Source: Trichlorobacter lovleyi SZ
Lineage (GTDB): Bacteria; Desulfobacterota; Desulfuromonadia; Geobacterales; Pseudopelobacteraceae
Direction of reading: 5' to 3'
Length of the DNA: 32,000 nt
Assembly: GCF_000020385.1 (NCBI RefSeq)
Contig: NC_010814.1
Location: 2,430,001-2,462,000 of the forward strand
The stretch's first letter is position 1; the number at the start of each line of letters is the position of its first letter. A model generated the notes under the pieces. It searched no databases, was not told the origin of the DNA, and saw only the letters and a program-made list of their open reading frames with translations. Both the position numbers and the translations under genes were made by a program. Shown piece after piece: positions 4,440-32,000 of this stretch.

Positions 4440-5449
4440 AAGCATTAGTTACTGGCGGCGGCGGATTTCTTGGCGGGGTAATCGTCAGAATGCTGCGTGA
4501 ACAGGGCGATCAGGTGGTCAGTATCTCACGCTCCAGCTACCCTGCACTGACGAGCCTTGGGGTTGAACAGGTGCAGGGTGATCTGGCTGATCAGGCCGCC
4601 GTTCTCAAGGCAGCACAGAGTTGTGACATCATCTTTCACGTGGCTGCCAAGGCCGGCATCTGGGGCAGCTACAACGACTTCTATCAGGCCAATGTAACCG
4701 GCACCGGGAACGTACTGGAGGCCTGCCGGGTACATGGCATCACACAACTGGTCTACACCAGCTCCCCCAGTGTGGTATTTGATGGCAATGATGTCGAGGG
4801 TGGCAACGAATCCCTGCCCTACCCTGAACACTTTGAAGCCTTTTATCCCCAGACCAAGGCGCTGGCCGAGCAGTTGGTGCTGGCGGCAAACAGTCCGCAG
4901 CTTGCCACCGTGTCACTCCGTCCCCACCTGATCTGGGGGCCTGGTGATAACCATCTGGTACCACGGATTATTGCCAAGGGGAAAAGCGGCAGGTTACGGC
5001 GGATCGGCAACCGCCCCTGTCTGGTGGACACGGTCTACGTGGATAATGCCGCCAGGGCGCACCTGCAGGCAGCAGAGCGGCTTGCTCCCGGCAGTGTGAT
5101 AGCAGGAAAAGCCTATTTCATCAGCAATGGAGAACCTGTTCAGTTGTGGGATATGGTAAACCGGATTCTGGCGGCAGGTGGTGTAGCGCCGGTTAAAGGT
5201 AGTATCTCACCAAAGGCGGCTTATGCTGTGGGAACAATGTGTGAAGGGATCTGGAAGCTGCTTAACCTGTCTGGTGAACCGCCCATGACCCGTTTTGTGG
5301 CCAAAGAACTGGCCACAGCCCACTGGTTTGATATCTCGGCAGCCCGCCGGGATTTGGGCTATCAACCGCAGGTAACGCTGGATGAGGGGTTGGTTCGACT
5401 ACAAAAATGGCTGGCAGAAACTAGACCTTCACCGTTTCCTTTTCTTTAG
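4436..5449 (+). CDS. oleD: OleD, NAD(P)H-dependent 2-alkyl-3-ketoalkanoate reductase (3-beta-HSD/extended SDR family)
   Basis: I chose the start at the internal ATG (MKALVTGGGGFLGG, Rossmann motif) that overlaps the oleC stop. The catalytic YPQTK (YxxxK) is present. The ORF-track start at 4415 would overlap oleC by 25 nt. Confidence 0.85.
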   Translation: MKALVTGGGGFLGGVIVRMLREQGDQVVSISRSSYPALTSLGVEQVQGDLADQAAVLKAAQSCDIIFHVAAKAGIWGSYNDFYQANVTGTGNVLEACRVHGITQLVYTSSPSVVFDGNDVEGGNESLPYPEHFEAFYPQTKALAEQLVLAANSPQLATVSLRPHLIWGPGDNHLVPRIIAKGKSGRLRRIGNRPCLVDTVYVDNAARAHLQAAERLAPGSVIAGKAYFISNGEPVQLWDMVNRILAAGGVAPVKGSISPKAAYAVGTMCEGIWKLLNLSGEPPMTRFVAKELATAHWFDISAARRDLGYQPQVTLDEGLVRLQKWLAETRPSPFPFL

Positions 5450-6230
5450 CCGCATCCTTTTTCCTGCGATTGAGCAGGATCAGTAAAATGCCGCCAGCCA
5501 GATAGATCGGCAGGCTGAGCAACTGCCCCATGGAGAAGAAGTTGAAGTAGAGCCCCAACTGGCTGTCAGGTTGGCGAAACAACTCCACCACGAACCTGAA
5601 CAGGCCATACCCGCACAGAAAGGCTGCCATGGCGGTACCGGGGGCCTGATACCTGCGTGCAATCAAGCGTACCAGAAAAAACAGGACGATACCCTCAAGG
5701 AAAGCCTCGTACAGCTGGGACGGGTGCCGGGGTAACGGCCCTCCATCAGGAAAGATCATCCCCCACGGCATGGTGGTGGTACGGCCGAACAGCTCACCAT
5801 TGATGAAGTTACCGATCCGCCCCAGACCGAGCCCCACAGGGGCCGCCAGGGCGGCAAGATCAGCCAGCTGCAGATAGGGCAACTGAAAACGGCGGGCGTA
5901 CCAGAGTGCGGCAACGGCTACACCGATCAGACCGCCATGAAATGACATCCCTCCCTGCCAGATGGCAAAGATCCGCAGCGGGTTTGCCAGATAGCTCCCG
6001 AGGTCGTAGAAAAGTACGTACCCCAGCCGGCCACCGGCCACCACTCCCAGTGCCAGACAGAAGATCAGGTCCGCAACGGCCTCATTGTCCAGTGCAAGCT
6101 TTCTGCGCCGCGCCTCGTTGCGGATCAGAAAATAGCTGGCCAGAAAACCGATGACATACATGAGCCCGTACCAGCGGAACTGCAATGGACCCAGGCGGAA
6201 GAAAACAGGATCAATTGCGGGAAAGTGCAT
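5421..6230 (-). CDS. lgt: Prolipoprotein diacylglyceryl transferase
   Basis: 269 aa polytopic membrane protein. The N-terminus MHFPAIDPVFFRLGPLQFRWYGLMY and the GRIGNFINGELFGR motif are typical of Lgt. Confidence 0.95.
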   Translation of the reverse strand: MHFPAIDPVFFRLGPLQFRWYGLMYVIGFLASYFLIRNEARRRKLALDNEAVADLIFCLALGVVAGGRLGYVLFYDLGSYLANPLRIFAIWQGGMSFHGGLIGVAVAALWYARRFQLPYLQLADLAALAAPVGLGLGRIGNFINGELFGRTTTMPWGMIFPDGGPLPRHPSQLYEAFLEGIVLFFLVRLIARRYQAPGTAMAAFLCGYGLFRFVVELFRQPDSQLGLYFNFFSMGQLLSLPIYLAGGILLILLNRRKKDAAKEKETVKV

Positions 6231-6328
6231 AACGGATTACTCCTCAGAAATCCTGATCGGGAAATAGGTACAAAAAAACCACCCACGTTTTTTAACTGCT
6301 GTGCTATATAAAACAGCTGGAGGGTATC

Positions 6329-6418
6329 ATGAAAGATATACTTTTGTTGCTGCTTATTCTGGCTGTCTGGTTTGTCGTAAACAAATATCTGCTGCCCCGG
6401 CTGGGAGTTCCTACCTGA
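6329..6418 (+). CDS. Candidate 29-aa single-TM small protein (MKDILLLLLILAVWFVVNKYLLPRLGVPT)
   Basis: ATG at 6329 is preceded by GGAGGG (6318-6323) at 5-nt spacing. The product has a strongly hydrophobic core. It ends at a TGA that is followed in frame by 20 more sense codons (see findings). I cannot judge homology from the sequence alone. Confidence 0.3.
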   Translation: MKDILLLLLILAVWFVVNKYLLPRLGVPT

Positions 6419-6521
6419 ATGTCAGACAGCTGTACTCCCCCGGTTCGGGAGGAGAAAAAAACAACGCCCCCCAATACATAGCAGCTCAGTAGCCAGGTTA
6501 GACGGACAAGGCCGGTTGCTC

Positions 6522-6956
6522 TCAGCGACCGGCCTTGTTGCGTCGTTCTGTCGGCTCCTCCAGAACCACCAGATAACCATCAGGGTCAAAGCACCACATC
6601 TCCTTGACACCATAGGGCTTCTCCTCCAGATGGTAGAGAATTTCCATATCTTCTTCCAGGATGGCATCCCGGATCCCTTCAATATCCCTGACTTCAAAGT
6701 GCAGTGTAACCCCGACCCCTTTGGGAAACATGCTGAAACGATGTTCAAGCACCGGGTGGGTCCTGATCACATCACTTTCTTCAACAAAGATCAGGGAGAT
6801 GCCGCCCATGTCAACGATCAGATGTTCAGGTGCCCCAGGAGCTGAGAATGAGCGCCGGATCGGCAGTTCCAGAATACCGGCATAAAATGCTTCGGTGACA
6901 ACCAGTTGCGTTACAGCCAGCTGAATTGAATGTTCAGAGCGGTGCGCCTTGACCAT
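6522..6956 (-). CDS. VOC (glyoxalase/bleomycin-resistance/dioxygenase) family protein
   Basis: 144 aa. The beta-alpha-beta-beta-beta pattern and the C-terminal KPYGVKEMWCFDPDGYLVVLEE are typical of VOC-fold proteins. Its start is 1 nt downstream of the ccdA stop. Confidence 0.75.
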   Translation of the reverse strand: MVKAHRSEHSIQLAVTQLVVTEAFYAGILELPIRRSFSAPGAPEHLIVDMGGISLIFVEESDVIRTHPVLEHRFSMFPKGVGVTLHFEVRDIEGIRDAILEEDMEILYHLEEKPYGVKEMWCFDPDGYLVVLEEPTERRNKAGR

Positions 6957-6957
6957 T

Positions 6958-7686
6958 TTAGTTTTTCATAAACAGCAGATTGACATACCCGGAAAGCACG
7001 GACAACCAGTTGGTAAATATCAGCACACCAACAATTATCAGGAAAAAGCCGGTAATGATCTCAAAGAGCCTGATATGTTTTTTAAACCGGTTAAATACGG
7101 TAATAAAGCGGTGCAGGGCAAGAGAGGACAGCAGAAACGGGATACCCAGACCGATGGAGTAGAGCAGTAGCAGCACAATCCCATGGGCAACCTTTTCTTC
7201 AGTTGCTGCTATCATCAGGATCGAGGCCAGGATCGGCCCGATACAGGGGGTCCAGCCGGCCGCAAAGGCCAGACCGACCAGGAAGCTGCCCAAAAATCCG
7301 GCCGGCTTATGCTTCAGCGAGACCCGTTTTTCCCCCAGCAGCCATTTCAGCGGTACCAGACCGGTGACATGAATACCGAAGACAATAATCAGGATGCCAC
7401 CAAGCTTGCGGACCAGTTCCATATGCTGCTGCAGGAACGAACCGATATAGGTTGCTGAGGCCCCAAGCAGGACAAACACGACCGTAAAACCGCTGACAAA
7501 GGCCAGCGAGTGCAGCATGGTCTTTCTGCGCACAACATGGGTGGGATGCTCGGCATCCAGATCACTGAATGAAAGACCGGTGATATACGTAATATACGAG
7601 GGAATAAGCGGCAGGACGCAGGGAGAAAGGAAGGAAAGCAGACCTGCGACAAACGCTCCGATATAGGTAATCTGTTGAGTTTCCAT
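6958..7686 (-). CDS. ccdA: Cytochrome c biogenesis thiol-reductant transporter CcdA/DsbD-beta family
   Basis: 242 aa polytopic membrane protein with FLSPCVLPLIPSY and a second Cys in GWTPCIGP, the two conserved CcdA cysteines. Confidence 0.9.
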   Translation of the reverse strand: METQQITYIGAFVAGLLSFLSPCVLPLIPSYITYITGLSFSDLDAEHPTHVVRRKTMLHSLAFVSGFTVVFVLLGASATYIGSFLQQHMELVRKLGGILIIVFGIHVTGLVPLKWLLGEKRVSLKHKPAGFLGSFLVGLAFAAGWTPCIGPILASILMIAATEEKVAHGIVLLLLYSIGLGIPFLLSSLALHRFITVFNRFKKHIRLFEIITGFFLIIVGVLIFTNWLSVLSGYVNLLFMKN

Positions 7687-7697
7687 AAGGTGTCCGG

Positions 7698-8213
7698 CTA
7701 CTTCATCAGACCTTCAAGAAAGGCAATCACTTCAGGGCTGTTCCAGTCCAGACCGCCAATCACTTTTTTGACAATCAGACCGTTTTTATCAATCACAAAG
7801 GTTTCTGGCACCCCGGTAATACCATAGGTCTTGGCAACCTGTCCGCTTGGATCAGTATAGGCTGGCAGCGAGTATCCGGAATTTTTCAAAAACTCCTGTA
7901 CCGCCTGTTTGCCCCCTTCGTCAACAGAAACGCAGACCATCTGAAACGGTTTGCCTGCCATAAACGTGTTCAGTTTGATCATGGAGGGGATCTCTTCCCG
8001 ACAGGGAGGACACCAGGTGGCCCAGAAGTTAAGCAGCACCACCTTCCCCTTCAGGGCAGCCAGGGTCAACTGCTGGTTATCAAGCGAGACCACACTGATC
8101 TCGGGGGCCTGGCTCTTTTCAGCAGGGGCCTTGGAAGGGGCGGCAGACTTGTCCTTACTGCAACCGGCGGTAAGGGCAACAGCACAGCAGAGCAGTACCA
8201 GCAACTTTTTCAT
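7698..8213 (-). CDS. TlpA/ResA-like periplasmic thiol:disulfide oxidoreductase lipoprotein
   Basis: The start at ATG 8213 is preceded by GGAGGA (8221-8226). It has a lipobox LTAGC and the thioredoxin motif WATWCPPC. Confidence 0.9.
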   Translation of the reverse strand: MKKLLVLLCCAVALTAGCSKDKSAAPSKAPAEKSQAPEISVVSLDNQQLTLAALKGKVVLLNFWATWCPPCREEIPSMIKLNTFMAGKPFQMVCVSVDEGGKQAVQEFLKNSGYSLPAYTDPSGQVAKTYGITGVPETFVIDKNGLIVKKVIGGLDWNSPEVIAFLEGLMK

Positions 8214-8273
8214 GTATATATCCTCCAGCATAAAAACGGGATTTACAGCGTGAAAGAACTGCGCCTGGGGTGG

Positions 8274-18944: not shown

Positions 18945-20981
18945 ATGAGCCATACCGCACACATTCGCAGCCGGATACTGATTCCGTTGTCACTTACCTT
19001 TCTGGTACTGCTCTGCGGTTTCCTTTACAGTGCCTTTGCCATCCGGGGATCCGGGATCACGCATGAGCTGGAACGGGAACATGGTGAAACCATTTCCATC
19101 TTCAAGGAAATGCTGGCATCCAGGATCAGACTGATGACGGCCTCTGCCGAGGTCATTCTCAACGACCCGGCCACCCAACGGGCCATGCGCAGCCGGAACC
19201 GCTCCGCCCTCTACGCTGCTGCACTGCCCTACCTGCGCAAACTGTCAGCAAACGATGTCTCCCATTTCTACTTTCATACCCCGGATGCCAAGAGTTTCTT
19301 GCGGGTTCACCAACCTGACCGCTATGGGGATCTGATCAGCCGCGATTCCATGCAACGTGCACTGAAAACCGGTACTGCTACCGACGCCCTGGAGATGGGC
19401 CCCTTCGGCACCCTGACCCTGCGCCTGGTCATCCCCTGGGAGGACCAAAGCGGCCGGATCGGATTCCTGGAGCTTGGCACAGAAGTAAATGAAATTCTTG
19501 ACGACCTTTCAATCATCAACAACATTGACTATCTGGTCGTACTCAACAAAACGTTGCTTGACAAAAAGGCCATGGCTACAGGCTATGCCTGGGTGGGAAG
19601 AAGGATTGACTGGGATAAATACCCGGAAAAAGTCATCATTGCCCAGTCGATTCCAAGCATTCCACCGGCATTGGATCACTTGCTTTCAGAGGAAACAAAG
19701 AAGTTTTCCCGCAACAAGGCCTGGAACAGCGCAGCGCTTGACAACAGACATTACGCCTTCAAAACCTTTCCCTTTCACGAATCAAGCGGCCGCGAGATCG
19801 GAAATTTCGTTCTGTTATACGACATCACCAATCAGACCCGAAGTTTTCACCACTTTATCGTCTATTCACTCTGTTTCAGCTGCGGCATATCAATCTTCCT
19901 GTTCATGTTTGCCTGGAAGATCCTGGGGCGTGTTGAACAAACCATTGAAGAGACCCAACAGCAGCTGTCACAGGAAGTGGTCAAGACCTCTGAAGCAAAT
20001 GCCCTGCTTGAATCCGAGGTTGCCGAGCGTCAAAAAGCGGAGGAGGCGCTGGTCCATCTGAATGCACACCTGGAAGAACGGATTGCGGAGCGGACCGTAC
20101 ACCTTGAAACCGCAACCAGAGAACTTGAGCAGGGACGGCATGAGCTGGAAAAGGCCTATGCAGAGCTAACCTCGCGACAGGCGATTATCCTGCATCAGGA
20201 CAAAATGGCCAGTATCGGTCTTCTGGCTGCCGGGGTTGCCCATGACATCAACAATCCGATCGGTTTTGTAACCAACAACCTGGAAGAACTCCGTATCTAC
20301 CTGACCCGGCTCCAGGCATTTATTGAAGAGCAGCAGGCCATCATTCAGGCCTCGGCCCCTCCCGAAGAACTGAAAAAATTACACGAAGACTGGAATCAGT
20401 TGGGAATTGAGTACATTCTTGATGATTTTGGAGCGTTGATTGCAGAGTCTCTGGAAGGGGCAGGACGGGTCAGCGACATTGTCAAAAACCTGCGCAACTT
20501 CTCCCGTGTCGATGATTTTGCCTTCAAGCTGGCTGATATCAATGAGTGTCTGGAAAGTTCCATCAAGATCACCCAGCATGAACTGCGACATAAAGCGCAG
20601 GTACATCGGCAGTTTGGCGAGATTCCAAAGATTTTCTGCTGCCCGCAGCAGCTGAACCAGGCCTTCATGAATCTGCTGGTCAATGCGGCCCATGCCATTG
20701 ACAAGCATGGTGAGGTCACGCTCAAAAGCTGGTCTGACTCTGACGGGGTGCATATCTCCATCGCTGACACCGGATGCGGCATTCCGGACGAACTGCTACC
20801 AAAGATATTTGAACCGTTTTTTACCACCAAGGAAGCCGGCAAAGGGACCGGCCTGGGGCTCAGCATTGTTGCTGATATCATCAAGCTGCACCAGGGTGAG
20901 ATCAACGTGCAAAGCCGACCGGGTCAAGGAACAACCTTTACCATTACACTGCCAGTAAAATCCGAGGTTGGCGATGCCTGA
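18945..20981 (+). CDS. Membrane sensor histidine kinase with a probable Cache-type extracytoplasmic domain, a coiled coil and a kinase core
   Basis: 678 aa. Two TM segments (residues about 10-32 and about 305-325) bracket a roughly 270-aa periplasmic domain. H-box [14 protein letters not shown], N-box [10 protein letters not shown], G1 DTGCGI and G2 GTGLGL are present. Confidence 0.9.
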   Translation: [678 protein letters not shown]

Positions 20982-21381
20982 CACGCTGCGACTACTTTGC
21001 GTTGACGACGAGGAGCATATCCTTAAAACACTGGCGCGGTTCTGTCATAATGAAGGGATTACCCTGCTGACTGCCGGTTCAGCCGCAGAGGCCCTGTCCA
21101 TACTGGAACGGGAACCGGTCATGATTGTCATCTCCGACTACCAGATGCCGGAAAAAAACGGACTTGACTTTTTGAGCGAAGTCCGTAGCAAATGGCCGCA
21201 GATCGTCAGGATCATGTTGTCCGGTTTTATCGAGCCAAGCGCGGTCAGCCAGGCTCTGCAACAGGGTGAAATCTTCGGTTTTCTCCCCAAACCCTGGCAA
21301 CGCAACGACCTGAAGAACCTGATTCAGACTGCAGCCGCCCAGTACAGGGCCGGCACTACCACAGAAAGAACTGCCAGATGA
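20974..21381 (+). CDS. Single-domain response regulator (REC only)
   Basis: LLCVDDE, the phospho-acceptor context VISDYQMP, and KPW near the C-terminus. ATG 20974 is preceded by GAGG and overlaps the kinase gene by 8 nt (ATGCCTGA). A TTG at 20968 is an alternative start. Confidence 0.9.
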   Translation: MPDTLRLLCVDDEEHILKTLARFCHNEGITLLTAGSAAEALSILEREPVMIVISDYQMPEKNGLDFLSEVRSKWPQIVRIMLSGFIEPSAVSQALQQGEIFGFLPKPWQRNDLKNLIQTAAAQYRAGTTTERTAR

Positions 21382-22748
21382 CGGTAGCTACCCGTATCCT
21401 GTTTGTCGATGACGAACCTGCCTATTGCCGTATTTTCAGCAAACGGATCGGTGCTGATCCCCGCTTTCGGGTTGAGACCGCCGGGAGTGGCGCTGAAGCC
21501 CTGGAACGCCTGCAGCACTCTCCGGCTGACATTGTCATTACCGACCTGAGCATGCCGCTCATGGACGGCATCGAGCTCTTGAGCGAAATCAAGAGCCTGT
21601 ACCCCCAGATCTTTATCCTGATCCTGACCAGTGATGACAGCACCTCACAGGTCGTCAAGGCGATGAAGGCCGGGGCCTATGACTACCTGTTGAAGCCCTT
21701 TGATTTTGAGATGGTAGAGCGGTCGATTGCGACCATACTGTCACACAAGGCCGCCGTACAGGCCGGTCTCTGCCCGGAATGCCTGAGTGGAGAGCAGTAC
21801 TGCTTTGAAAACCTGATCGGCCAGGACCGCAAGATGTTTGAGATCTATGAGATGATCAGCCAGGTTGCCCAGACCAGCGCCACCGTACTGATTACCGGTG
21901 AAAGCGGTACCGGCAAAGAGCTGATTGCCTCAGCTATCCATGCCAAAAGCACCCGCAAAGACAAGCCGTTTATCCAGATCAACTGTGCTGCACTGACAGA
22001 GGGACTGATCAGCAGCGAACTTTTTGGCCATGAAAAAGGTGCCTTTACCGGCGCCGTGGCCAGAAAAAAAGGCCTGTTTGAACAGGCCTCCGGCGGCACG
22101 TTGTTTCTGGACGAGATCGGCGACATCTCCCCCACCACCCAGGTTTCGCTGCTGCGCATTCTGGAGCTGGGCACCTTTCAGCGTGTTGGCGGCACTGAGA
22201 CCATCAAGGCGGATGTACGCCTGATCTGTGCCACCAACCGGGACCTGGCCGCTGCCGCCCGGGAAAAACAGTTTCGAGAAGACCTGTATTACCGTCTTAA
22301 CGTGGTCTCCCTGCAGGCACCTCCCCTGCGGGACCGCAGATCCGACATTCCCCTGCTGGTGCGCTATTTCCTGGAGCGCTACTGCAGCCTGAACAACAAA
22401 CAGATTGACGGTGTCACCCGTGATGCCATGACCCTGCTCTGCAACTATGACTGGCCGGGTAACTGCCGAGAACTTGCCAACATCATTGAACATGCGGTCA
22501 TCTTCAGCCGAGGCAGAACCCTTGACAAAGACAGCCTGCCATCCCAGATCAGAACCTCTGACCGCCACTCCAGTGGACTCACCCTGAACCTTGCCACAGC
22601 GACCCTGGCTGATGCCGAAAGCGCCCTGATTAAAAAAGTGCTGGAAGAATCCAACTGGAACCTGAAAAAGGCTGCCGAACTGCTGGATATTGCACGCGGG
22701 ACCCTCTACGGGAAAATGGAAAAATATCACCTCACCAAGCCGGTCTGA
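21378..22748 (+). CDS. Sigma54-dependent response regulator (NtrC family: REC + AAA+ + Fis-type HTH)
   Basis: 456 aa. It has REC (ILFVDDE..ITDLSMP), Walker A GESGTGKE, the sigma54-contact loop GAFTGA (EKGAFTGAV) and a C-terminal HTH (AAELLDIARGTLYGKM). The start overlaps the previous gene (ATGA). Confidence 0.95.
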   Translation: MTVATRILFVDDEPAYCRIFSKRIGADPRFRVETAGSGAEALERLQHSPADIVITDLSMPLMDGIELLSEIKSLYPQIFILILTSDDSTSQVVKAMKAGAYDYLLKPFDFEMVERSIATILSHKAAVQAGLCPECLSGEQYCFENLIGQDRKMFEIYEMISQVAQTSATVLITGESGTGKELIASAIHAKSTRKDKPFIQINCAALTEGLISSELFGHEKGAFTGAVARKKGLFEQASGGTLFLDEIGDISPTTQVSLLRILELGTFQRVGGTETIKADVRLICATNRDLAAAAREKQFREDLYYRLNVVSLQAPPLRDRRSDIPLLVRYFLERYCSLNNKQIDGVTRDAMTLLCNYDWPGNCRELANIIEHAVIFSRGRTLDKDSLPSQIRTSDRHSSGLTLNLATATLADAESALIKKVLEESNWNLKKAAELLDIARGTLYGKMEKYHLTKPV

Positions 22749-22852: not shown

Positions 22853-22977
22853 ATTTGAACATATCCGCTACTCACTGTATCATACCTAAATTATTAACCA
22901 AATATCCAATCAGCCCGCCATCCGCCAAATACATGTCGAATATTGAACAGATTAGAGCGTCCGCCCGAATTTGAACA
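22853..22977 (+). promoter_or_regulatory. Three direct copies of (A/T)ATTGAACA: candidate enhancer (UAS) sites
   Basis: GGTATTTGAACA (motif 22853-22861), CGAATATTGAACA (22941-22949) and CGAATTTGAACA (22968-22977). They lie 70-195 nt upstream of the -24 element in an AT-rich 395-nt intergenic region. Confidence 0.35.
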
Positions 22978-23045
22978 CCTCCTCTGTCTGACCCAAAACT
23001 GCCAAACAGCATTTTAGATCCGTAAATCAAGCCACTTATGCCAAG

Positions 23046-23061
23046 CGGCACAGTTGTTGCT
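23046..23061 (+). promoter_or_regulatory. Sigma54 (-24/-12) promoter
   Basis: CGGCACAGTTGTTGCT against the consensus TGGCAC-N5-TTGCW. The GG (23047-48) and GC (23059-60) have exact 12-nt register. It lies about 90 nt upstream of the tetR start and directly downstream of a sigma54 activator gene. Confidence 0.7.
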
Positions 23062-23152
23062 CAATTGATTAACTAAATCGCACAACTACGCGAATAAACT
23101 CATTAATAATATCTAACCCAACTCCTGCACGCACCGAACGGAGATGAACGAC

Positions 23153-23803
23153 ATGGCCAGAAGCCACTCCACAACCGGCAGACACCCCCACCGTCAGGCA
23201 CGCGACGAGGATACCGTCTCGACTGCAGAGCGGATCATTGCAGCGACCCTGCAGCTGTTGTCAAGCCGCTGCCTCCATGCCATCTCGATTCGCGACATCG
23301 CCTCTGCAGCCCATGTCAACAGCGCCCTGATCTCGTATCACTTCAAGAACAAGGAAAACCTGTACAACACGGTGGTAGCCTCACAGTTCCAGGCCTATCA
23401 GCAGCAGGTCGTCTCTGCATTCAGCACCGAAGGCGATATCCGCAAGACGATCTGCACCGTCTGCCATCTGATCGCCTCCTTCCATCACTCGAACCCCTGC
23501 ATGCTCATACTATATTTCAGAGAACTCACCAACCCGTCACCGGCCTACAAAACAATCATTCAACCCTGCATCAAGGAGGCCTCGGATAAATGCGTTGCCA
23601 TGATCAAGGCCGGCATCCAGGCCGGGGTTATCGCTCCAGCAACAAATCCGCGCCATGTCACGCTGTCGCTGGTAGGCATGGTCAACTACTTCTTTATGAC
23701 CAGGCAGATCATGCAGGACCTTGCCCTGGAACCGGCTAACAACGTTAACGAGTATATCGATTTTGTCTGCCAGACCATCTTGAAGTCGATCGTGGTTGAG
23801 TAA
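23153..23803 (+). CDS. TetR/AcrR family transcriptional regulator
   Basis: The HTH is ISIRDIASAAHVNSALISYHFKNKENLY. I prefer ATG 23153 because GGAG at 23140-23143 sits 9 nt upstream. ATG 23144 is an alternative but would leave no RBS spacing. Confidence 0.85.
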   Translation: MARSHSTTGRHPHRQARDEDTVSTAERIIAATLQLLSSRCLHAISIRDIASAAHVNSALISYHFKNKENLYNTVVASQFQAYQQQVVSAFSTEGDIRKTICTVCHLIASFHHSNPCMLILYFRELTNPSPAYKTIIQPCIKEASDKCVAMIKAGIQAGVIAPATNPRHVTLSLVGMVNYFFMTRQIMQDLALEPANNVNEYIDFVCQTILKSIVVE

Positions 23804-23930: not shown

Positions 23931-26279
23931 ATGCTGAAACGAAACATGATCAGTACCGCAGGATGCCTGCTGCTGTTCGCAGCTTCGTTGTTTACCGGCT
24001 GTTCCGGCGGCGGTGGTGGCGGCTCCACCCCTGCACCGAGCCAACCGGTTGTTGATGCCGCGACCATGAGCAATGAGACTCTGTCAGCCGTATCACTGCG
24101 AGCAACTGACATCAAGGTCACCATCAACAGTCCGCCGGTTGTCACCTTCAAGCTGTTGACAGCAGCCGGCAACCCGATCAAGGGGTTGGGTATCGCCTCA
24201 ACATCAACACCAACCAGCCTTAACTACATGCGTTTTACCATTGCCAAACTGGTTCCAGGCACCAACAATGCCCCTGATCAGTGGGTCAACTACCTGGTTA
24301 CCGCAACCAGCCGTCCAACCACTGAAAACGTGGCTGCCGGCCTGGTGGACAATGGTGATGGTTCCTATACCTACACCTTTGCCAAGAACATTACCGATCC
24401 GACCCAGACCAACGGTGTCACCTATCAACCGACCCTGACCCATCGTCTGGCCATCCAGATCTCCGGCACCATCCCCGGCACAGCCATCACTCTGGCAAAC
24501 CCGGCTAACATCATCTATGACTTCATTCCGGCCACCGGCAAGGCAGTCAGCGCCACCGACACCCAGCGTGAGATCACCCTGATCGCCAAGTGTAACGAGT
24601 GCCATGAGAAGCTTGCCTTCCACGGCGGCGGTCGCGTTGAAACCAGATATTGCGTGGTCTGCCACACTGACCAGCGCAAGATCGGCCGCACCAATTCCGC
24701 CTCAACCGGCGGTGTATTTACCGGTACCACCTACATTGCCGACGGCGAAGTGCAGGGCGACTTTGCCATCATGGTTCACAAGATTCATATGGGTAACCGC
24801 CTGACCAAGACCGGTTACGACTATGCCGGCGTCAAGTATAATGATATCGGCTACTCCATGATCGATGGCCAGATCAACTGCCTCAAGTGCCATGTCAAGT
24901 CCGACGCCGCACCTCAGGGCGACAACTGGAAGGCCAAGCCGAGCCGTGCGGCCTGCGGTTCGTGCCATGACAACATCAACTTTGCCACCGGTGCAAACTC
25001 CAAGGCCGGCGGTGCTGTCCACATCATCCAGACCAGCGATGCCAACTGCTCCACCTGCCACACAACAGCCAACATCACTGAGATGCATGCCTCTGAAAAC
25101 AACACCCCGAACAAGACCATGCTGAAGGCCGGCCTGGTGAACTTCACCTACGAAATCAAGAACGTGTCCGTCAGCACCGATAACCAGCCGGTAGTTACCT
25201 TCCGTATCCTCAAGGACGGCGCTGCCATCTCCCTGCCGCTGACCGGCTTCACCGGCGGCCCCAGCTTCCTGATCAGCTATGCCCTGCCCCAGGACGGTAT
25301 TACACCGGTTGACTACAACAACCTGGGCAAATCAGCAGCGCAACCGGCCTCAGTCTCACTTGCCAACCTGATCAGCGGTGCCCAGGGCACCCTGACCGGC
25401 CCTGATGCCAGCGGCTACTACACCGCCACCATCAATGGCGCCTCCAATGCTGCCCGCTTCCCGGTCGGCGCCACCCTGCGTGCCGTTGCACTGCAAGGCT
25501 ACTTTACCCAGGCTGCCGGCACCAACGGTATTGCCAGCGCAACAGCCCGTCATACCATTTCCGTGGTCAAGGCCGTCACCGGCGACACCGTACGCCGCAC
25601 CGTGGTTGACAGTGCCAAGTGCGCCAAGTGCCATGAGTGGTTTGAAGGCCATGGCGGTAACCGTGTCTATGAAATGCAGGTCTGCGTCATGTGCCACAAC
25701 CCCAACCTCTCCTCCAGCGGACGCGGCGCAAACGTTGCCAACCTGAGCGCAACCGAGGCAGCCAAACTGGCAGCAGCCGGTTACAGCACCACCGATCCAA
25801 GCGGCTGGCCTGAGGCCTCCAACAACTTCAAGGATCTGATTCACGGTATCCATGCCGGTTCCAAGCGCGCAGCCGACGGCGCACCGTACCGTTTTGTCCG
25901 TGACCGTGGCACCAGCGGTGTCTACTACTACGACTGGAGCAAGGTCACCTTCCCGGGCATCCTGAAGAACTGCGAGTCCTGCCACGTGGCAGGTACCTAC
26001 AGCGGTACTCCCGCCAACACCCTGCGCAGCACGCAGAACACCAAGGATGCCGGCGGTCTCTTCACCAAGACCGTGCCGAATACCACTGACGTGATGCTGC
26101 CAGGCTTTACTTCAGCCTGCATTACCTGCCACGCCAGTGCCAATGCAGGCGCCCACAGCGTCTCCATGGGCGGTACCACCCTGACCGGCCAACTGCGCTC
26201 TGCAACAAATGCTGAGACCTGCGCAGCATGTCACAGCGCCGGCAAGACGGTTGACGCAGCAACGGTTCACAGGAGGTAG
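23931..26279 (+). CDS. Decahaem c-type cytochrome lipoprotein, OmcA/MtrC family-like (two beta-domain + pentahaem repeats)
   Basis: ATG 23931 follows GGAGGA (23921-26). It has a lipobox LFTGC followed by a Gly6/Pro-rich linker. There are ten CxxCH motifs arranged 5+5. The motifs DNGDGSYTYTF and CNECHEKLAFHGGGRVETRYCVVCHT resemble S. oneidensis OmcA (DHGDGSYSYTY and CYTCHQPESLALHGGRRIDIENCASCHT, recalled from memory). Confidence 0.85.
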   Translation: MLKRNMISTAGCLLLFAASLFTGCSGGGGGGSTPAPSQPVVDAATMSNETLSAVSLRATDIKVTINSPPVVTFKLLTAAGNPIKGLGIASTSTPTSLNYMRFTIAKLVPGTNNAPDQWVNYLVTATSRPTTENVAAGLVDNGDGSYTYTFAKNITDPTQTNGVTYQPTLTHRLAIQISGTIPGTAITLANPANIIYDFIPATGKAVSATDTQREITLIAKCNECHEKLAFHGGGRVETRYCVVCHTDQRKIGRTNSASTGGVFTGTTYIADGEVQGDFAIMVHKIHMGNRLTKTGYDYAGVKYNDIGYSMIDGQINCLKCHVKSDAAPQGDNWKAKPSRAACGSCHDNINFATGANSKAGGAVHIIQTSDANCSTCHTTANITEMHASENNTPNKTMLKAGLVNFTYEIKNVSVSTDNQPVVTFRILKDGAAISLPLTGFTGGPSFLISYALPQDGITPVDYNNLGKSAAQPASVSLANLISGAQGTLTGPDASGYYTATINGASNAARFPVGATLRAVALQGYFTQAAGTNGIASATARHTISVVKAVTGDTVRRTVVDSAKCAKCHEWFEGHGGNRVYEMQVCVMCHNPNLSSSGRGANVANLSATEAAKLAAAGYSTTDPSGWPEASNNFKDLIHGIHAGSKRAADGAPYRFVRDRGTSGVYYYDWSKVTFPGILKNCESCHVAGTYSGTPANTLRSTQNTKDAGGLFTKTVPNTTDVMLPGFTSACITCHASANAGAHSVSMGGTTLTGQLRSATNAETCAACHSAGKTVDAATVHRR

Positions 26280-26304
26280 TTACAACCCGTTCAGCACCTG
26301 ACAG

Positions 26305-26330
26305 CAGGGGCATGGGAAACCATGCCCCTG
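26305..26330 (+). other. Intercistronic 11-bp stem-loop with GAAA tetraloop
   Basis: CAGGGGCATGG-GAAA-CCATGCCCCTG starts 26 nt after the decahaem stop. No U-tract follows. Confidence 0.6.
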
Positions 26331-26464
26331 TACGCGCATCATTCTCTGGAACGAATATTTACCTAAACATATCGGATGTTTGCCAATGCAGACCATCGTC
26401 CCTGCCTGCTACACGGGCGGGAATCGCGATACACTTCACACCCTGCAGAAAGGAGGTTAATTTG

Positions 26465-27688
26465 ATGGTACGGATGCCTAAGCGATTGCTGTACCCACTG
26501 CTTGGAGCCGCCCTCCTGATGCCTGTCAGCACGTCATGGGCTCTGGAACTCCATGGACGGTCATCAACCCAGTATTTATGGTTCAACAACATCTTCAACG
26601 ACAAAAAACAGGCGGAATTTGCCCAGTATCTTCAATTTTCACTGAGCGACATCGATCCGGACAAAAAACTCACGTTGCACGGCTATGGACGGATTTCCCA
26701 GGATGTCATGAATGGTGAAGGCTTCGGTGAGCGCCTGTTTTATCTGTATGCCGATTACCGCGACCTGTTCAACAAGGTAGATATCAGGGCCGGACGCCAG
26801 TTCGTCAACTACGCCGCCGGCAGCGCCCTTATCGACGGCGGCATGGTCGATCTGAAAAATGTCGGACCGGTTGCCTTCTCGGTCATGGGAGGGCGCAACG
26901 TCTATTACGGCATTGACGGCGAACTGACCCATGCCGGTGATACCGTCTTTGGCGCAGCGGCCTACCTGACCGGCTATCCTGCCACCGATGCCGAGATCAG
27001 CTATTTTGTTAAACGCGACAATGACGGCATCGCCAGAGAGCAGATCGGCGCCATGTTCCGCCAGTATCTGTTCGGCGGGCTCAAGTTGTACGGCAACACC
27101 CGCTTTGACATGGCCAGCGAGAATTTTGATGAAATCCTGGCCGGAGCAAAGTACTTCGTCAACGAAAACCTGGTGCTTACCGGGGAATGGTTCCAGAGTT
27201 ACCCGACCTTTGATTACACCTCGATTTACTCGGTATTTGCCGTGGACCGGTATCAGGAAGGCTCATTCCGGGCCGATTACACCATCAATCATATGTTTGC
27301 CGTACGGGGCGCCTACAAATATCAGGACTTTGGCGAAAACACCGAAGGGCATGTCTTTGAGGCAGGCCTGAAGGTCAGACCGATTGAAACCCTGATGCTG
27401 GACTTCGGCTATGACCGCCGTCACGGCTATGCCGGCGACCTGGACGGCTTCACCGTTGATGCCCAGTATGACGTGACCCCCAACCTGCAACTGGCTGGCG
27501 GCATGGCCTACGATGTCTACAAGAAGGACAGCATGACCGGCGATACCAATGCCCAGAGCTACTGGCTGGGTACTCGCTACAGGCTGAACAAGACCATGTC
27601 TGTTGACGCCCGGGTACAGGACAATATCAACGTTGGCCACTTCAGACACGACTGGTCAGGTCGGGTTGCTTTCAACTACGACTTCTAG
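26465..27688 (+). CDS. Outer-membrane beta-barrel (porin-like) protein of a porin-cytochrome conduit
   Basis: ATG 26465 lies 8 nt after AGGAGG. The signal peptide is ...PVSTSWA/LE. It has no Cys or haem motifs, an alternating hydrophobic/aromatic pattern and a C-terminal ...AFNYDF (terminal Phe, an OMP signature). It sits between cytochrome genes. Confidence 0.75.
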   Translation: MVRMPKRLLYPLLGAALLMPVSTSWALELHGRSSTQYLWFNNIFNDKKQAEFAQYLQFSLSDIDPDKKLTLHGYGRISQDVMNGEGFGERLFYLYADYRDLFNKVDIRAGRQFVNYAAGSALIDGGMVDLKNVGPVAFSVMGGRNVYYGIDGELTHAGDTVFGAAAYLTGYPATDAEISYFVKRDNDGIAREQIGAMFRQYLFGGLKLYGNTRFDMASENFDEILAGAKYFVNENLVLTGEWFQSYPTFDYTSIYSVFAVDRYQEGSFRADYTINHMFAVRGAYKYQDFGENTEGHVFEAGLKVRPIETLMLDFGYDRRHGYAGDLDGFTVDAQYDVTPNLQLAGGMAYDVYKKDSMTGDTNAQSYWLGTRYRLNKTMSVDARVQDNINVGHFRHDWSGRVAFNYDF

Positions 27689-27703
27689 GAAGGGGGGATT
27701 TTT

Positions 27704-28435
27704 GTGAAGAAAGTTTTTTTCATCTGCGCACTGCTCATCTACGGCCTGCTGATCTTCAATCAGCAGCAGTCCCGTGCCGAGAAAATGTCGCACAAGGACT
27801 TTGCCAAGATGGAACTGAAAGATTGCAACTCCTGTCACAAAGAACAGGGCATCCCCCTGACCCATGACAACGACTGGGCAGGCAGGCACCACCAGAACAC
27901 CGACTGGATGGGTGAACACCGTGCACTGGCCGGTAAGGCCGGCACCAACTGTATCGAGTGCCACACGCAATCATTCTGTAACGACTGTCACACCGGTGGC
28001 GGCGTTGACGCAGCATTGCGTACGCCGAACTTTAAACGCAACTACATGCCTAAAAACCACCGCAGCGACTTTATCAGTATTCACCCGATCAAGGCCAAGG
28101 ACAACCAGCAGAGCTGCATCCGCTGCCACAACCAGAAGTTCTGCTCCGACTGCCACGTCCGCTTCCCCAAAGGCTCACTGCGGATTAAATCGCACAACCC
28201 TGCCGGGCCGAACAATCAGATCTATGCTGCCTCAAACTGGTCCCAGGAACACTCGACCGAGGCCCGCAGAAACCTGCAATCCTGCCAGACCTGTCATCCA
28301 TCCGGCGATGTCTGCATCAAGTGTCACAGCAGCGGCAAGACACGGCCCCACCCCCGCAACTGGAAGGCCGGTAACTTCAAAGACAGAACCAACGGCAAGG
28401 TATGCGTCAAGTGTCACCTACCGGGAACGTATTAA
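27704..28435 (+). CDS. Periplasmic octahaem c-type cytochrome (OmaB/OmaC-like)
   Basis: GTG 27704 follows GGAAGGGGGG. It has a Sec signal peptide with no lipobox. Eight CxxCH motifs sit in about 218 mature residues, several as CxxCH-x3-5-CxxCH pairs. Confidence 0.85.
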   Translation: MKKVFFICALLIYGLLIFNQQQSRAEKMSHKDFAKMELKDCNSCHKEQGIPLTHDNDWAGRHHQNTDWMGEHRALAGKAGTNCIECHTQSFCNDCHTGGGVDAALRTPNFKRNYMPKNHRSDFISIHPIKAKDNQQSCIRCHNQKFCSDCHVRFPKGSLRIKSHNPAGPNNQIYAASNWSQEHSTEARRNLQSCQTCHPSGDVCIKCHSSGKTRPHPRNWKAGNFKDRTNGKVCVKCHLPGTY

Positions 28436-28465
28436 CATCATTACATCATCAAGGAGGAACTACGT

Positions 28466-29968
28466 ATGCAGATGCGAAGATTAGTAGTCATGCTGTTTTG
28501 TCTGCTGCCCATGACGGTACTTATGTACGGCTGCGGCTCCACTTCCAAAGAAGGTTCTGCGGTCAGCGGTCCCGTCAAGGTTGACGAGGCTTCATGCGCC
28601 CAGTGCCACGCACAGGCGGTTGACTCAATTGAGCCATCAACAACCATTTACGCCAAGTACAACCAATCCCTGCACTTCACCAACAACTTCCATACGGTGG
28701 GCTGCCAGGACTGCCACGGCGGCGGTTCGCAGCACAACGGTGTCGGCCCGATCCAGTATGCCAACCCCGATGCAGCCGGACAATGTTTCAGCTGCCACAA
28801 AAACTATTTAAATAGTGAACATTACGCAGTCTATCCTGCTTCTTCTGTCTACAACGGCCCTGCGCACAATGCGCAATACGTCAGCACTAACTATCAGAAC
28901 TCCTGCAGCAGCTGCCACGACTCCCATCAACCCAAAGTTAGTCAGGAACACACCGACTGGGCCACATCAGGCCACGGTGAAGTCAGCGCCGAAGGTTGGG
29001 CACACTATGACTTCAAATTCTATGGCACCGGCGAATGTACCCCCTGCCATACCTCAACCGGCTTTATCAATTTTGTCAGCAACGGCTTTACCATGCCCAC
29101 CAGCACCTGGGCCACCGCCGGTGACGGCAGCCGCGAAGTGCTGACCTGCAAGGCCTGCCACACAGATTACAACTTCAAAAACCGGATCCGCAACGTTGCC
29201 GCAGTCAAGGCGATCTACACCTATAACGGCGCCAACGTTCAATTCAACAGCATGGGCGCATCAAACCTCTGTATCACCTGCCATGCCGGTCGCGGCAACA
29301 CCCAGTCTGCCAAGAGCACCAGGTTCCAGGGACACCATGCCCCGGCTGCCGGCGTGCTGTTCAGCTCATCAGCCCACACCGGCTACGAGTTCAGCGGTAA
29401 ATCCTATGGCAATGCAACCGGCTTCATTCACAACAAGATCGGTACCTCTGCCGCTCCCGGCACCGGTTCCAACGGTCCCTGCGTAACCTGTCACATGAGT
29501 GCCGCAGATAACGCAAACAGCCATAAGTTCTCGGCAGCCACCAAGAACACTGCCGGTGCCATTACAGCCCTGCCAACCCAGGCTGCCTGCCTCAAGTGCC
29601 ACTCGGCTGCCTTTGTGACGCCTGCCAACATGGAACTGCTGCGCCTGGGCTACAATGAGGCCGGTGAAGTCCTGAAGGCCTATGTTGCCAACACCATCAC
29701 CAACTACCTGAATGTCGCCATTACCAGCACCAACTACGCCACGGTTGCCGACAATGCCTATGGCGCATTCCAGAATGCGCAACTGTCGACAGAAGAAAAA
29801 GGTGCCTTTGCACACAACAGCGTTTATGCCAAGCGCCTGATCTTCGACTCGATCGACTGGATGGACAACGGTGCGTTCAACAACACCATCACTATCCCGG
29901 CCGGGTATCCGAACGCACGTGCCTGGTTCGGTGCCGATGCAGCCGGTGTTGTGGCAAGCCGTCCCTAG
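28466..29968 (+). CDS. Nonahaem c-type cytochrome lipoprotein
   Basis: ATG 28466 follows AGGAGG (28452-57). It has a lipobox LMYGC and nine CxxCH motifs. The C-terminal region of about 120 aa has no haem motifs. Confidence 0.85.
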   Translation: MQMRRLVVMLFCLLPMTVLMYGCGSTSKEGSAVSGPVKVDEASCAQCHAQAVDSIEPSTTIYAKYNQSLHFTNNFHTVGCQDCHGGGSQHNGVGPIQYANPDAAGQCFSCHKNYLNSEHYAVYPASSVYNGPAHNAQYVSTNYQNSCSSCHDSHQPKVSQEHTDWATSGHGEVSAEGWAHYDFKFYGTGECTPCHTSTGFINFVSNGFTMPTSTWATAGDGSREVLTCKACHTDYNFKNRIRNVAAVKAIYTYNGANVQFNSMGASNLCITCHAGRGNTQSAKSTRFQGHHAPAAGVLFSSSAHTGYEFSGKSYGNATGFIHNKIGTSAAPGTGSNGPCVTCHMSAADNANSHKFSAATKNTAGAITALPTQAACLKCHSAAFVTPANMELLRLGYNEAGEVLKAYVANTITNYLNVAITSTNYATVADNAYGAFQNAQLSTEEKGAFAHNSVYAKRLIFDSIDWMDNGAFNNTITIPAGYPNARAWFGADAAGVVASRP

Positions 29969-30047: not shown

Positions 30048-30075
30048 GCCGTCCCCTCCGGGGGGCGGCTTTTTT
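30048..30075 (+). terminator. Rho-independent terminator of the cytochrome operon
   Basis: GCCGTCCCC-TCCG-GGGGGCGGC (9 bp including one G.U pair) followed by TTTTTT. Confidence 0.8.
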
Positions 30076-30185: not shown

Positions 30186-32000
30186 ATGCTGAAACGCAAT
30201 ATCAGGAGGCAGGTACTGGTTCCACTGTCACTTACCTTCATCATCCTCACCATCTCGTTTATCTACACCAGCTACCGAATCAGGATGGATGATTATGAGC
30301 GGGGGATCGCGCACCGTTATAAGCGGGTCCAACATATCCTGAAAAGTCTGATTGGCGACCGGACACGTTTCATGACCTCCTCAATCGCCTTCATCGCTGA
30401 GCAGCAGCAGTTCCAGGATGCCATGCGCAGCAAAGACCGCCAGGCACTCCTGCAGCTCGGTCATCCCATACTCAAACGGCTCTTCAGCCAGCAGCAGATC
30501 ACCCATTTCTATTTTTATGACCCAAACGGGGCGATTATCCTGCGGGTCTATGACCCGCAGGACACCAGCGCCTCTCCGATGCGACATACCCGTCAGCAGG
30601 CAATGGTGCGGGGTGAAACCGTTTCCGGACTTGAACTGGGCCGGAACGGCACCTTCACCCTGCGGGTTGTGTATCCCTGGAAAGTGCATGGTAAACTGAT
30701 CGGCTATATCGAATTGGGCCAGGAGTATGACCACATCCTGCAGGAATTACGAGCGGTCACCCTGATTGATTTTACCGTGGCTCTGGACAAAAAGCAGCTT
30801 GACCGTGAGTCCTGGGAACACGGCATGAAGCTGCTGGGACGTCCTGCAGACTGGAATCTTCTTCAAGATCGGGTCTTGAGTGATCAGACGGTCACCCTCC
30901 CACCCACTGCTATTGCAGCGCTGCTTGAAACGGGCAAAGGGGAAGAGAAACAAACACAGCAGATCAAGATCAAAAATAGAACCTACGGGGCACGTTCGTT
31001 TCCGTTGCAGGACATCGTTCAAAAAGAGGTCGGCCGGTTTATCCTGATCACCGACCTGACCGACAGCATAGCCTCATTTCGCCTCTTCATAACACAGATC
31101 CTTGCCTTCAGCCTGTTGGTATGCGCCGGATTGTTCACCTACTCCTACCGTTTGCTGGGCCAGGTGGATCAACACCTCAGAGAAAACCGGGAACAGCTTA
31201 ACCGGGAGCTGGAGCAGCGGGCTGAGACCAACAGACAACTTGAGGCGGAGGTTGACGAGCGGCAGCGGGCCGAGGCGAATCTGGTCACCCTGAACGAGCA
31301 GCTTGAGCAACGGGTGCTGGACCGGACGACGCAGTTGAATCAGCTGAACCGGCACCTTGAGACCAGCCGCAGCGAACTGGAGGAGGCCTGCAGAAACCTC
31401 CAGTCGCAGCAGGCAACCATCCTGCAGCAGGACCGGATGGCCTGCATCGGACAACTGGCAGCCAGCGTGGCCCATGACATCAACAATCCGATCGGCTTCG
31501 TCTATGGCAACCTGGAGGTCCTGAAAAACTACTGGGGCAAGCTTGCAACCTTTCTGGCCGAGCAGGACACGCTGCTGGCATCCTTGCTGTCTCCCGAACA
31601 GCTGCGCCATACAGCAGAGCGTCGCCAGGCCCTGAAGGTGGATTACGTACTGAATGAGTTTAATGCCGTGCTTGATGAATCACTTGAAGGAGCGGAACGG
31701 GTCAACCGGATTGTGCTGAACCTGAAAGGGTTTTCACGTCTTGACGAGAAGGAGGCCCGTCTGGCCGATATTCACGACTGCCTGGAAAGCACACTGAATA
31801 TCGTGCGGAATGAACTGCGCTACAAGGCCGATATCAAAAGGGAGTACGGGGATATCCCCCGCCTGGTCTGTTATCCCCAGCAACTGAATCAGGTCTTTAT
31901 GAATCTGCTGATCAACGCCTCACAGGCCATTGAAAACTGGGGCGAGATCACCATCCGTACCTGGACGGACCGGAAGAATGTCTTTGTCGCCATAGGTGAC
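30186..32000 (+). CDS. Second Cache-type sensor histidine kinase, paralogous to 18945-20981; 3'-truncated by the window edge
   Basis: It is absent from the ORF track because there is no stop. I translated it by hand: 605 codons are open from ATG 30186 to nt 32000. The layout matches kinase 1 (TM, periplasmic domain with [15 protein letters not shown], TM, coiled coil, H-box [13 protein letters not shown], N-box [10 protein letters not shown]). Confidence 0.85.
   Translation, partial: [605 protein letters not shown]

Follow-up and report, generated by a model that had tools for sequence, protein, structure and literature searches.

The two textbook systems of metal respiration, the Mtr conduit of Shewanella and the porin-cytochrome complex (Pcc; OmbB/OmaB/OmcB) of Geobacter, have been treated as separately evolved and unrelated in sequence (PMC4282303, PMC4245776, PMC12133095). 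Pcc clusters were present in all the Geobacter genomes then sequenced, including that of G. lovleyi (Shi et al. 2014); OmcB is reported not to be the terminal Fe(III)-oxide reductase, a downstream extracellular cytochrome being required (PMC4282303), and in omcB-type clusters non-orthologous proteins often take the place of the outer lipoprotein (PMC6148476). The Ext conduits of the same group (ExtABCD, ExtEFG, ExtHIJKL) contain a periplasmic 12- to 15-haem cytochrome and small pentahaem lipoproteins or a rhodanese lipoprotein (PMC6148476), and an extra lipoprotein decahaem upstream of extE has been noted in one cluster type (Jimenez Otero et al. 2018, Fig. 9 note c). Furthermore, MtrC/F homologues were reported in just two Desulfuromonadia species (Soares et al. 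2024), an MtrC-family decahaem was described in a prophage-like region of Desulfuromonas soudanensis (Badalamenti et al. 2016), and Pcc is not mentioned by Baker et al. (2022), where Geobacter is named as a model organism alone. In this work, a 32,000-nucleotide stretch of Trichlorobacter lovleyi SZ (NC_010814.1, positions 2,430,001 to 2,462,000; hereafter the window) was analysed. It holds a chromosomal tetR-decahaem-barrel-octahaem-nonahaem gene cluster (Table 1) which, on its gene order and homologies, is of the Pcc type (OmbB/OmaB/OmcB), with the difference that a gene for an MtrC-family decahaem is inserted behind the TetR gene and ahead of the barrel gene.

The decahaem is, judged by its profile score, a full-length member of the OmcA/MtrC family. 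It exceeded the curated NCBIfam cutoff for TIGR03507 along the entire model, with 475.3 bits (cutoff 209.3) over positions 2-672 of 672. Pfam domains PF22113 (MtrC/MtrF domains II/IV), in two stretches, and PF22112 (OmcA-like_N) were recognised, and the closest relatives in the PDB are MtrF, MtrC and OmcA, with MtrF (3pmq) aligning over three segments at E=3e-26. The spacing of the CxxCH motifs (residues 221, 241, 317, 342 and 373, then 564, 585, 681, 730 and 764), the Pfam matches and the MtrF alignment agree on a layout of two pentahaem domains with a beta-domain before each, and the motifs DNGDGSYTYTF and LAFHGGGR..C..CH align with the equivalent positions of MtrF. An OmcA-like decahaem in front of the barrel gene, with these motifs and a beta-domain/pentahaem duplication, had been proposed in a preliminary description made from the sequence, a proposal which the family search, the alignment and the Pfam matches support.

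The same description had called the decahaem Shewanella-type, which is right as regards the family but overstates the origin, as the nearest relatives (45-59% identity) are found outside Shewanella, in Geobacterales, Holophagaceae, Nitrospirae and Rhodoferax. The protein carries an N-terminal lipobox (LFTG-C24) followed by a Gly/Ser/Pro-rich tether, CSGGGGGGSTPAPS. In the Shewanella members a disulphide of domain III (CX8-15C) is conserved, without being required family-wide. Such a bridge is not possible in the window decahaem, in which 20 of the 22 Cys lie in haem motifs and the other two in the signal peptide and lipobox, so that no non-haem Cys is left elsewhere; the relatives from Geobacteraceae (L087) and Holophagaceae (L088), with 21 Cys, likewise have room for the haem motifs and the lipobox alone. 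Similarity to the Shewanella proteins is only distant, as the E-value against MtrF shows. A recent transfer from Shewanella was rejected, since the nearest relatives lie in other lineages and the GC content of the gene is only mildly raised (0.591 vs 0.55 for the window). A decahaem of Citrifermentans pelophilum (P0131, 56% identity) could not be placed on any contig.

The three genes that follow were described beforehand as reproducing the ombB-omaB-omcB order, and this order is indeed conserved: about 70 Geobacterales loci encode a porin and 8-haem pair, after which comes a lipoprotein cytochrome that varies from locus to locus. The 407-aa product of the first, with a signal peptide and the C-terminus NYDF, is predicted to be an outer-membrane barrel of about 22 strands: its AlphaFold2 model, of moderate confidence (predicted local distance difference test, pLDDT, 65.7; predicted template-modelling score 0.53), is all-beta with 22 strands, and all its top Foldseek matches are outer-membrane barrels, in keeping with the beta-barrel-like protein first suggested. 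No match was obtained for it among Pfam, NCBIfam and PDB sequences, and specifically none to MtrB/PioB (PF11854/TIGR03509). Its homologues number more than 800, the named ones being mostly from Geobacteraceae or Desulfuromonadaceae; a Trichlorobacter lovleyi protein shares 80% identity with it, and the barrel of a Citrifermentans bremense cluster (L069) 50%. The octahaem has a signal peptide without a lipobox, and gave no match to MtrA/DmsE (TIGR03508) or any other NCBIfam model and no significant one to PDB sequences.

The nonahaem is a lipoprotein (lipobox LMYG-C23) of the OmcB family, 42% identical over 72% of the query to a protein from Geotalea uraniireducens and 37% identical to one from T. 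lovleyi, both of which bear the name "C-type polyheme cytochrome OmcB". It has in common with the named OmcBs a CGSxNKEG-type tether and a C-terminal non-haem domain, and resembles OmcB minus a central module of about 240 aa which carries three haems. Nothing significant was found for it among PDB sequences; its AlphaFold2 model is of low confidence (pLDDT 62.5) except in the C-terminal helical domain, and Foldseek gave no match with E<0.4. In total, the three cytochromes carry 27 CxxCH motifs in adjacent proteins, against zero in the barrel protein, which is far beyond chance, and the haem-motif variants CxxxCH, CxxxxCH and CxxCK were not found among the four conduit proteins. A GGAGG-type ribosome-binding site (RBS) precedes each of the four genes, for which the coordinates and haem counts first given hold throughout. 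The same four genes occur in the same order on independent public contigs, among them a GTDB metagenome-assembled genome (MAG; L006) and a 375-kb metagenome contig (L092) where the cluster is 95-98% identical to that of the window, and an identical decahaem with matching neighbours was also found on independent public contigs.

Compared with Pcc, the window presents a TetR gene upstream, a porin, an 8-haem cytochrome of about 25 kDa and a multihaem lipoprotein in the published order, a barrel whose strand number falls within the published porin range of 18-22 (PMC4282303), and a third protein homologous to named OmcBs, the OmbB and OmaB of G. sulfurreducens having been compared by description only. 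It differs in that the decahaem gene and a hairpin stand between the TetR gene and the barrel gene, in the nine haems of a lipoprotein without the central three-haem module, and in having a sigma-54-type promoter and flanking sets of histidine kinase, response regulator and enhancer-binding protein (HK-RR-EBP). The TetR gene, in an OrfR-like position, has the decahaem gene between itself and the barrel gene; in a related locus (L078) it directly precedes the barrel gene. The content of the cluster, a 10-haem lipoprotein, a barrel, an 8-haem cytochrome and a 9-haem lipoprotein, also differs from that of the Ext conduits, with which it was compared by their published description.

The likeness to omcA-mtrCAB of Shewanella lies in the decahaem itself, a TIGR03507 protein with 5+5 haems, an N-terminal lipobox and, by Pfam, beta and pentahaem domains, and in the presence of two surface lipoprotein cytochromes beside one barrel, as with OmcA and MtrC. 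Nevertheless, the window has neither MtrB (about 700 aa, 28 predicted trans-membrane motifs, PF11854) nor the 10-haem MtrA (TIGR03508), none being found in its 32 kb by family profile searches of its proteins, and its second surface cytochrome is OmcB-like instead of a decahaem paralogue. A similar contrast is offered by the mtrA-mtrB-mtrC cluster of Rhodoferax (L089), the decahaem of which is 45-53% identical and belongs to the same sub-clade, but follows MtrA (309 aa, 10 haems) and MtrB (696 aa, PF11854), whereas that of the window precedes an OmbB/OmaB-type core.

Table 1. Features of the conduit locus and its surroundings, in window positions (RBS, ribosome-binding site).
Feature	Position	Strand	Remarks
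Decahaem lipoprotein	23931-26279	+	782 aa, 5+5 CxxCH, RBS GAGGAGG
OmbB-like outer-membrane beta-barrel (predicted)	26465-27688	+	407 aa, Cys-free, C-terminal Phe, RBS AAGGAGG
OmaB-like periplasmic octahaem	27704-28435	+	243 aa, GTG start, 8 CxxCH
OmcB-family lipoprotein nonahaem (third-slot protein)	28466-29968	+	500 aa, 9 CxxCH, tether CGSTSKEG
Nonahaem tether CGSTSKEG	28532-28555	+	residues 23-30
TetR-family regulator, OrfR-like position	23144-23803	+	PF00440 and CecR_C matches
dCache_3 histidine kinase	18945-20981	+	part of upstream set 18945-22748 (Pfam matches of the three-gene set: PF14827, PF02518, PF00158, PF00072, PF02954)
Response regulator	20968-21381	+	part of upstream set 18945-22748
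Sigma-54 enhancer-binding response regulator	21378-22748	+	part of upstream set 18945-22748
Putative sigma-54 promoter region	22854-23061	+	conserved boxes plus -24/-12 element
Conserved hairpin	26305-26330	+	CAGGGGCATGG-GAAA-CCATGCCCCTG, 10- to 11-bp, no U tract
Intrinsic terminator closing the putative operon	30048-30075	+	9-bp stem, 8 G-C pairs, then TTTTTT
Second dCache-type histidine kinase	30186-32000	+	42% identity to upstream kinase; runs past window end

The distribution of this arrangement was followed by a barrel-alignment scan of one genome per GTDB species, which yielded 79 loci, annotated by open reading frames (ORFs) and BLAST, mostly from Geobacter, Geobacteraceae and other Desulfuromonadia or deltaproteobacterial MAGs. 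Nearly all combine the barrel with an 8-haem, sometimes 9-haem, periplasmic cytochrome, and the lipoprotein cytochrome encoded after this pair, in what is here called the third or OmcB slot, varies with 8, 9, 10 or 12 haems, which matches the published non-orthologous replacement (PMC6148476). Nine haems were counted in 22 of 58 third-slot proteins and are as common as the 12-haem forms; the count of nine instead of twelve pointed out in the preliminary description is therefore correct, but is not unusual. A TIGR03507 decahaem was present in nine of the 79 loci, four times upstream and five times in the OmcB slot. Type A, with the tetR-decahaem-barrel-octahaem-9-haem arrangement of the window, comprises four GTDB species (L006, L009, L048 and L055), the decahaem of L055 being 29% identical to that of the window (TIGR03507, 378 bits). 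Type B, with barrel, periplasmic cytochrome and a decahaem in the OmcB slot (420-483 bits), comprises L010, L063, L068, L070 and L072, with a 9-haem periplasmic cytochrome where called (L010, L063, L070, L072). The type-B clusters, from Geobacter and Syntrophales-type MAGs, share with the window the barrel (49-76% identity, the highest value being that of L010), a related periplasmic cytochrome, a sigma-54 activator upstream and the presence of a TIGR03507 decahaem; they differ in that the decahaem stands in place of the OmcB-like protein, comes from a separate lineage and carries the third-slot tether. A combination unique to this organism was thus rejected, since it recurs in two architectures. 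The impression that it had not been recognised among described clusters stands as regards the literature, no account of an MtrC-family member within an OmbB/OmaB cluster, nor of type-B clusters, having been found in open-access papers and bioRxiv. Close to the type-B cluster of L072, a second MtrC-like gene (L072:12589-15172, - strand) appears split into parts of 725 aa with 6 haems and 150 aa with 4 haems, which could be a frameshift or a pseudogene.

In a neighbour-joining tree, the decahaems of types A and B form separate deep lineages (31-35% identity), so that the family was recruited to OmbB-type clusters at least twice. Those of type A group with orphan decahaems, with decahaems associated with small barrels and with the Rhodoferax MtrC encoded after canonical MtrA/MtrB. 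Moreover, pairs of loci document the exchange of the outer cytochromes. The clusters of L048 (2078-8900) and L078 (6215-11223) have barrels 98.3% identical, octahaems 98.7%, sigma-54 activators 93% and TetR proteins 80%; in L048 the decahaem gene and the hairpin are present and the third gene encodes nine haems, whereas in L078 the decahaem is missing and the third gene encodes twelve. These third genes are identical over the signal peptide and some 35 mature residues and diverge thereafter. One barrel lineage therefore accepts differing outer sets. The opposite is seen in L048 and L009, where the barrels are merely 50% identical but the decahaems agree at 86% and the nonahaems at 77% (96-98% in the C-terminal part), because of which decahaem and nonahaem are considered to travel together.

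The lipoprotein that contacts the barrel is suggested by a short motif. Directly after the lipid-modified Cys, C-G-S-x-[SN]-[KR]-E-G was found in 45 of 47 third-slot proteins (37 by the strict pattern), compared with five of the 89 other lipobox ORFs of the same loci, all five of which were third-slot proteins misclassified because the ORF picker had overlooked the barrel gene. The motif occurs whatever the third-slot family, in OmcB-like proteins with 8-12 haems as well as in all five type-B decahaems, and is lacking in the decahaem of the window, in the remaining type-A decahaems and in all the MtrC-family proteins examined in other contexts. This slot specificity is the main reason to regard the nonahaem, and not the decahaem, as the direct partner of the barrel, and the tether may be a determinant of coupling to it.

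On these grounds, a mechanism is proposed which, taken as a whole, has in our estimation about an even chance of being right: a Pcc-type conduit capped by the nonahaem, with the decahaem as accessory terminal reductase. The barrel, the periplasmic octahaem and the nonahaem would form a trans-outer-membrane conduit in which periplasmic electrons would enter the octahaem, seated inside the barrel, and would exit via the nonahaem capping the barrel at the cell surface. The decahaem would be a second surface lipoprotein, not plugging the barrel, and would be supplied with electrons by the nonahaem, in the way that MtrC supplies OmcA in Shewanella, to reduce Fe(III)/Mn(IV) minerals, chelates, shuttles or electrodes; it would fill the role of the separate extracellular cytochromes behind OmcB in G. 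sulfurreducens. We infer the formation of the complex, the docking lipoprotein, the direction of electron flow and the substrate, the physical wiring being read from synteny only.

Several points weigh against this proposal. The decahaem gene and the barrel gene are separated by a 185-nucleotide gap containing a hairpin; nine-haem third-slot proteins are common without any decahaem, so that the nonahaem needs no decahaem partner; conservation of the tether could reflect a recombination-prone 5' region rather than docking on the barrel; and an MtrAB pair elsewhere in the genome is possible. Furthermore, in the five type-B loci the MtrC-family decahaem is the sole outer cytochrome after the barrel, and the family can therefore presumably cap such barrels directly. 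This last observation, together with the 76% identity between the L010 and window barrels and the frequent replacement of the outer lipoprotein in omcB-type clusters (PMC6148476), speaks for another arrangement, in which the window decahaem docks directly on the barrel/octahaem core, as MtrC does on MtrAB, decahaem and nonahaem then being interchangeable outer partners that would give two conduit species with differing acceptor ranges. However, the third-slot decahaems belong to a different deep lineage and all carry the CGSxNKEG tether that the window decahaem lacks, and the latter is encoded upstream, behind the hairpin, and not in the third slot; this arrangement is accordingly judged unlikely.

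As regards regulation, a -24/-12 element (GGCAC-N5-TTGCT, 23047-23061), with one mismatch to TGGCAC-N5-TTGCW, lies 83 nucleotides ahead of the tetR start and is preceded by the boxes TTTGAACA, at 22854 and 22970, and TGTCGAATATTGAACAGATTAGA, at 22934-22956. The element and the boxes keep their position in L009, L048, L078, L006 and L001, and it is this conservation which gives weight to the site, not the number of matches to the generic sigma-54 pattern, which is at chance level window-wide (28 found vs 25 expected). Matches to sigma-70 promoters were discarded, being no more frequent than in shuffles. The boxes are probably binding sites of the neighbouring sigma-54 activator, and a matching HK-RR-EBP trio stands ahead of the cluster in L009, L048, L078 and L010. 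Since a single conserved sigma-54-type promoter precedes them and a single terminator follows, the genes from tetR to the nonahaem gene are suggested to form one operon, for which we infer sigma-54 control.

Within this putative operon, the GC-rich hairpin found about 25 nucleotides past the decahaem stop goes together with the decahaem gene: in L009 and L048 (three loci with the window) it is kept through compensatory base changes, and the tetR-porin spacer of L078, a locus without the decahaem, does not contain it. The hairpin may act as an attenuator or stabilise the mRNA 3' end, and would permit differing expression levels within the operon. The TetR protein is 71-76% identical in L009, L048 and L078, and regulation also appears mosaic, because L006 has no TetR gene (region L006:3305-3771) and its upstream HK-RR-EBP proteins are just 68-76% identical, compared with 95-98% for the conduit genes. 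Paralogous dCache histidine-kinase sets flank the conduit operon on both sides, an equivalent downstream HK-RR-EBP set being found in L009, where it is complete, and on a Logan contig. The TetR protein holds one CxxCH (CTVCH, residues 104-108, 23453-23467), probably by chance.

The contexts of the decahaem were surveyed separately in 80 metagenome loci with decahaem relatives, classified by their neighbours. MtrA/MtrB adjoin the decahaem in 21 loci, a barrel of 437-463 aa with a periplasmic pentahaem and a pentahaem lipoprotein in 14, and an OmbB/OmaB-type pair in three, no neighbour being recognised in the remaining 42, many on short contigs. Hence, 17 of the 38 loci having a recognisable barrel system are non-Mtr. 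The 21 loci beside MtrA/B bear on the possibility that the window decahaem serves a distal MtrAB-type or other conduit, or is a free surface reductase, and is merely co-regulated with its neighbours. In addition, mtrC is often found apart from mtrAB in Desulfobacterota (PMC12133095), MtrA/MtrB homologues are reported in at least 58% of Desulfuromonadia species (PMC11492766), and close relatives of the decahaem are orphan (L085, L086, L090) or stand with MtrAB in Rhodoferax. Such a partner elsewhere is nonetheless rather improbable in view of the position between tetR and barrel, conserved in the four type-A species and on near-identical public contigs, of the same sigma-54-type promoter ahead of decahaem and conduit genes, of the co-inheritance of decahaem and nonahaem across divergent barrels, and of the lack of MtrA/MtrB within the window.

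The preferred scheme, with the nonahaem as cap and the decahaem as accessory reductase, also assumes an outward flow of electrons, a direction which the sequence itself does not fix. Mtr-type porin-cytochrome conduits run inward in Fe(II) oxidisers (PMC4245776, PMC6148476), and the window conduit might likewise import electrons, from Fe(II) or cathode oxidation or by interspecies electron uptake. Since the host clade and all the characterised OmbB/OmaB/OmcB homologues are Fe(III) reducers, and no Fe(II)-oxidation markers were found in the window, import is considered very improbable.

The small-barrel clusters provide a further parallel. An extra lipoprotein decahaem beside a non-Mtr barrel is present in Ext-type and small-barrel clusters (L087, L088, L091), with the upstream position known from the window in L091, L098, L107, L125 and L126; the difference lies in the 437-463 aa barrel, at most 24% identical to that of the window (24% for L088), and in the pentahaem partners. 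The same conduit type also occurs in L095 and L100, and may correspond to the Ext-type or GM18_3461-type clusters. In the Holophagaceae genome GCA_016720465.1 (L088:5405-17025) the small-barrel conduit is tandemly duplicated, with an MtrC-family decahaem. Tandem arrays of three to four MtrC-family decahaem genes were observed in L097, L102, L104, L111, L120, L129 and L140, some of them directly upstream of an MtrA homologue.

What is new is, on the one hand, an MtrC-family surface cytochrome built into an OmbB/OmaB-type cluster behind one sigma-54-type promoter and, on the other, the recurrence of Mtr/Pcc mixing in two architectures with two decahaem lineages, which suggests that the two textbook systems exchange parts. 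In consequence, MtrC matches in Desulfobacterota metagenomes are not to be taken as evidence of the Mtr pathway, and Pcc clusters may bring their own terminal reductase in organisms without cytochrome nanowires. A wider and more doubtful reading is that of an exchangeable terminal module: three or more unrelated outer-membrane barrels (MtrAB, OmbB/OmaB and the smaller pentahaem-partnered one) would share MtrC-family decahaems by horizontal exchange, with the C-G-S-x-N-K-E-G tether coupling the third-slot cytochrome to the barrel. If this were true, unrelated cytochrome families would be swappable by recombination at the tether, Mtr and Pcc would not be separate inventions but would draw on one common parts pool, and the specificity of a conduit could be re-engineered by tether grafting. 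The swap between L048 and L078 represents a ready-made comparative experiment on the outer cytochromes accepted by a given barrel.

The remainder of the window is ordinary chromosome, with relA/spoT, gmk, yicC, thrC, lgt and a polyprenyl synthase gene. The lgt gene, for the prolipoprotein diacylglyceryl transferase, is located near DsbD_TM/CcdA-like and thioredoxin-like/ResA-like genes (5421-8231, - strand); these lgt, CcdA-like and ResA-like functions are needed for the maturation of lipoprotein c-type cytochromes, and their closeness to the conduit operon may be coincidence.

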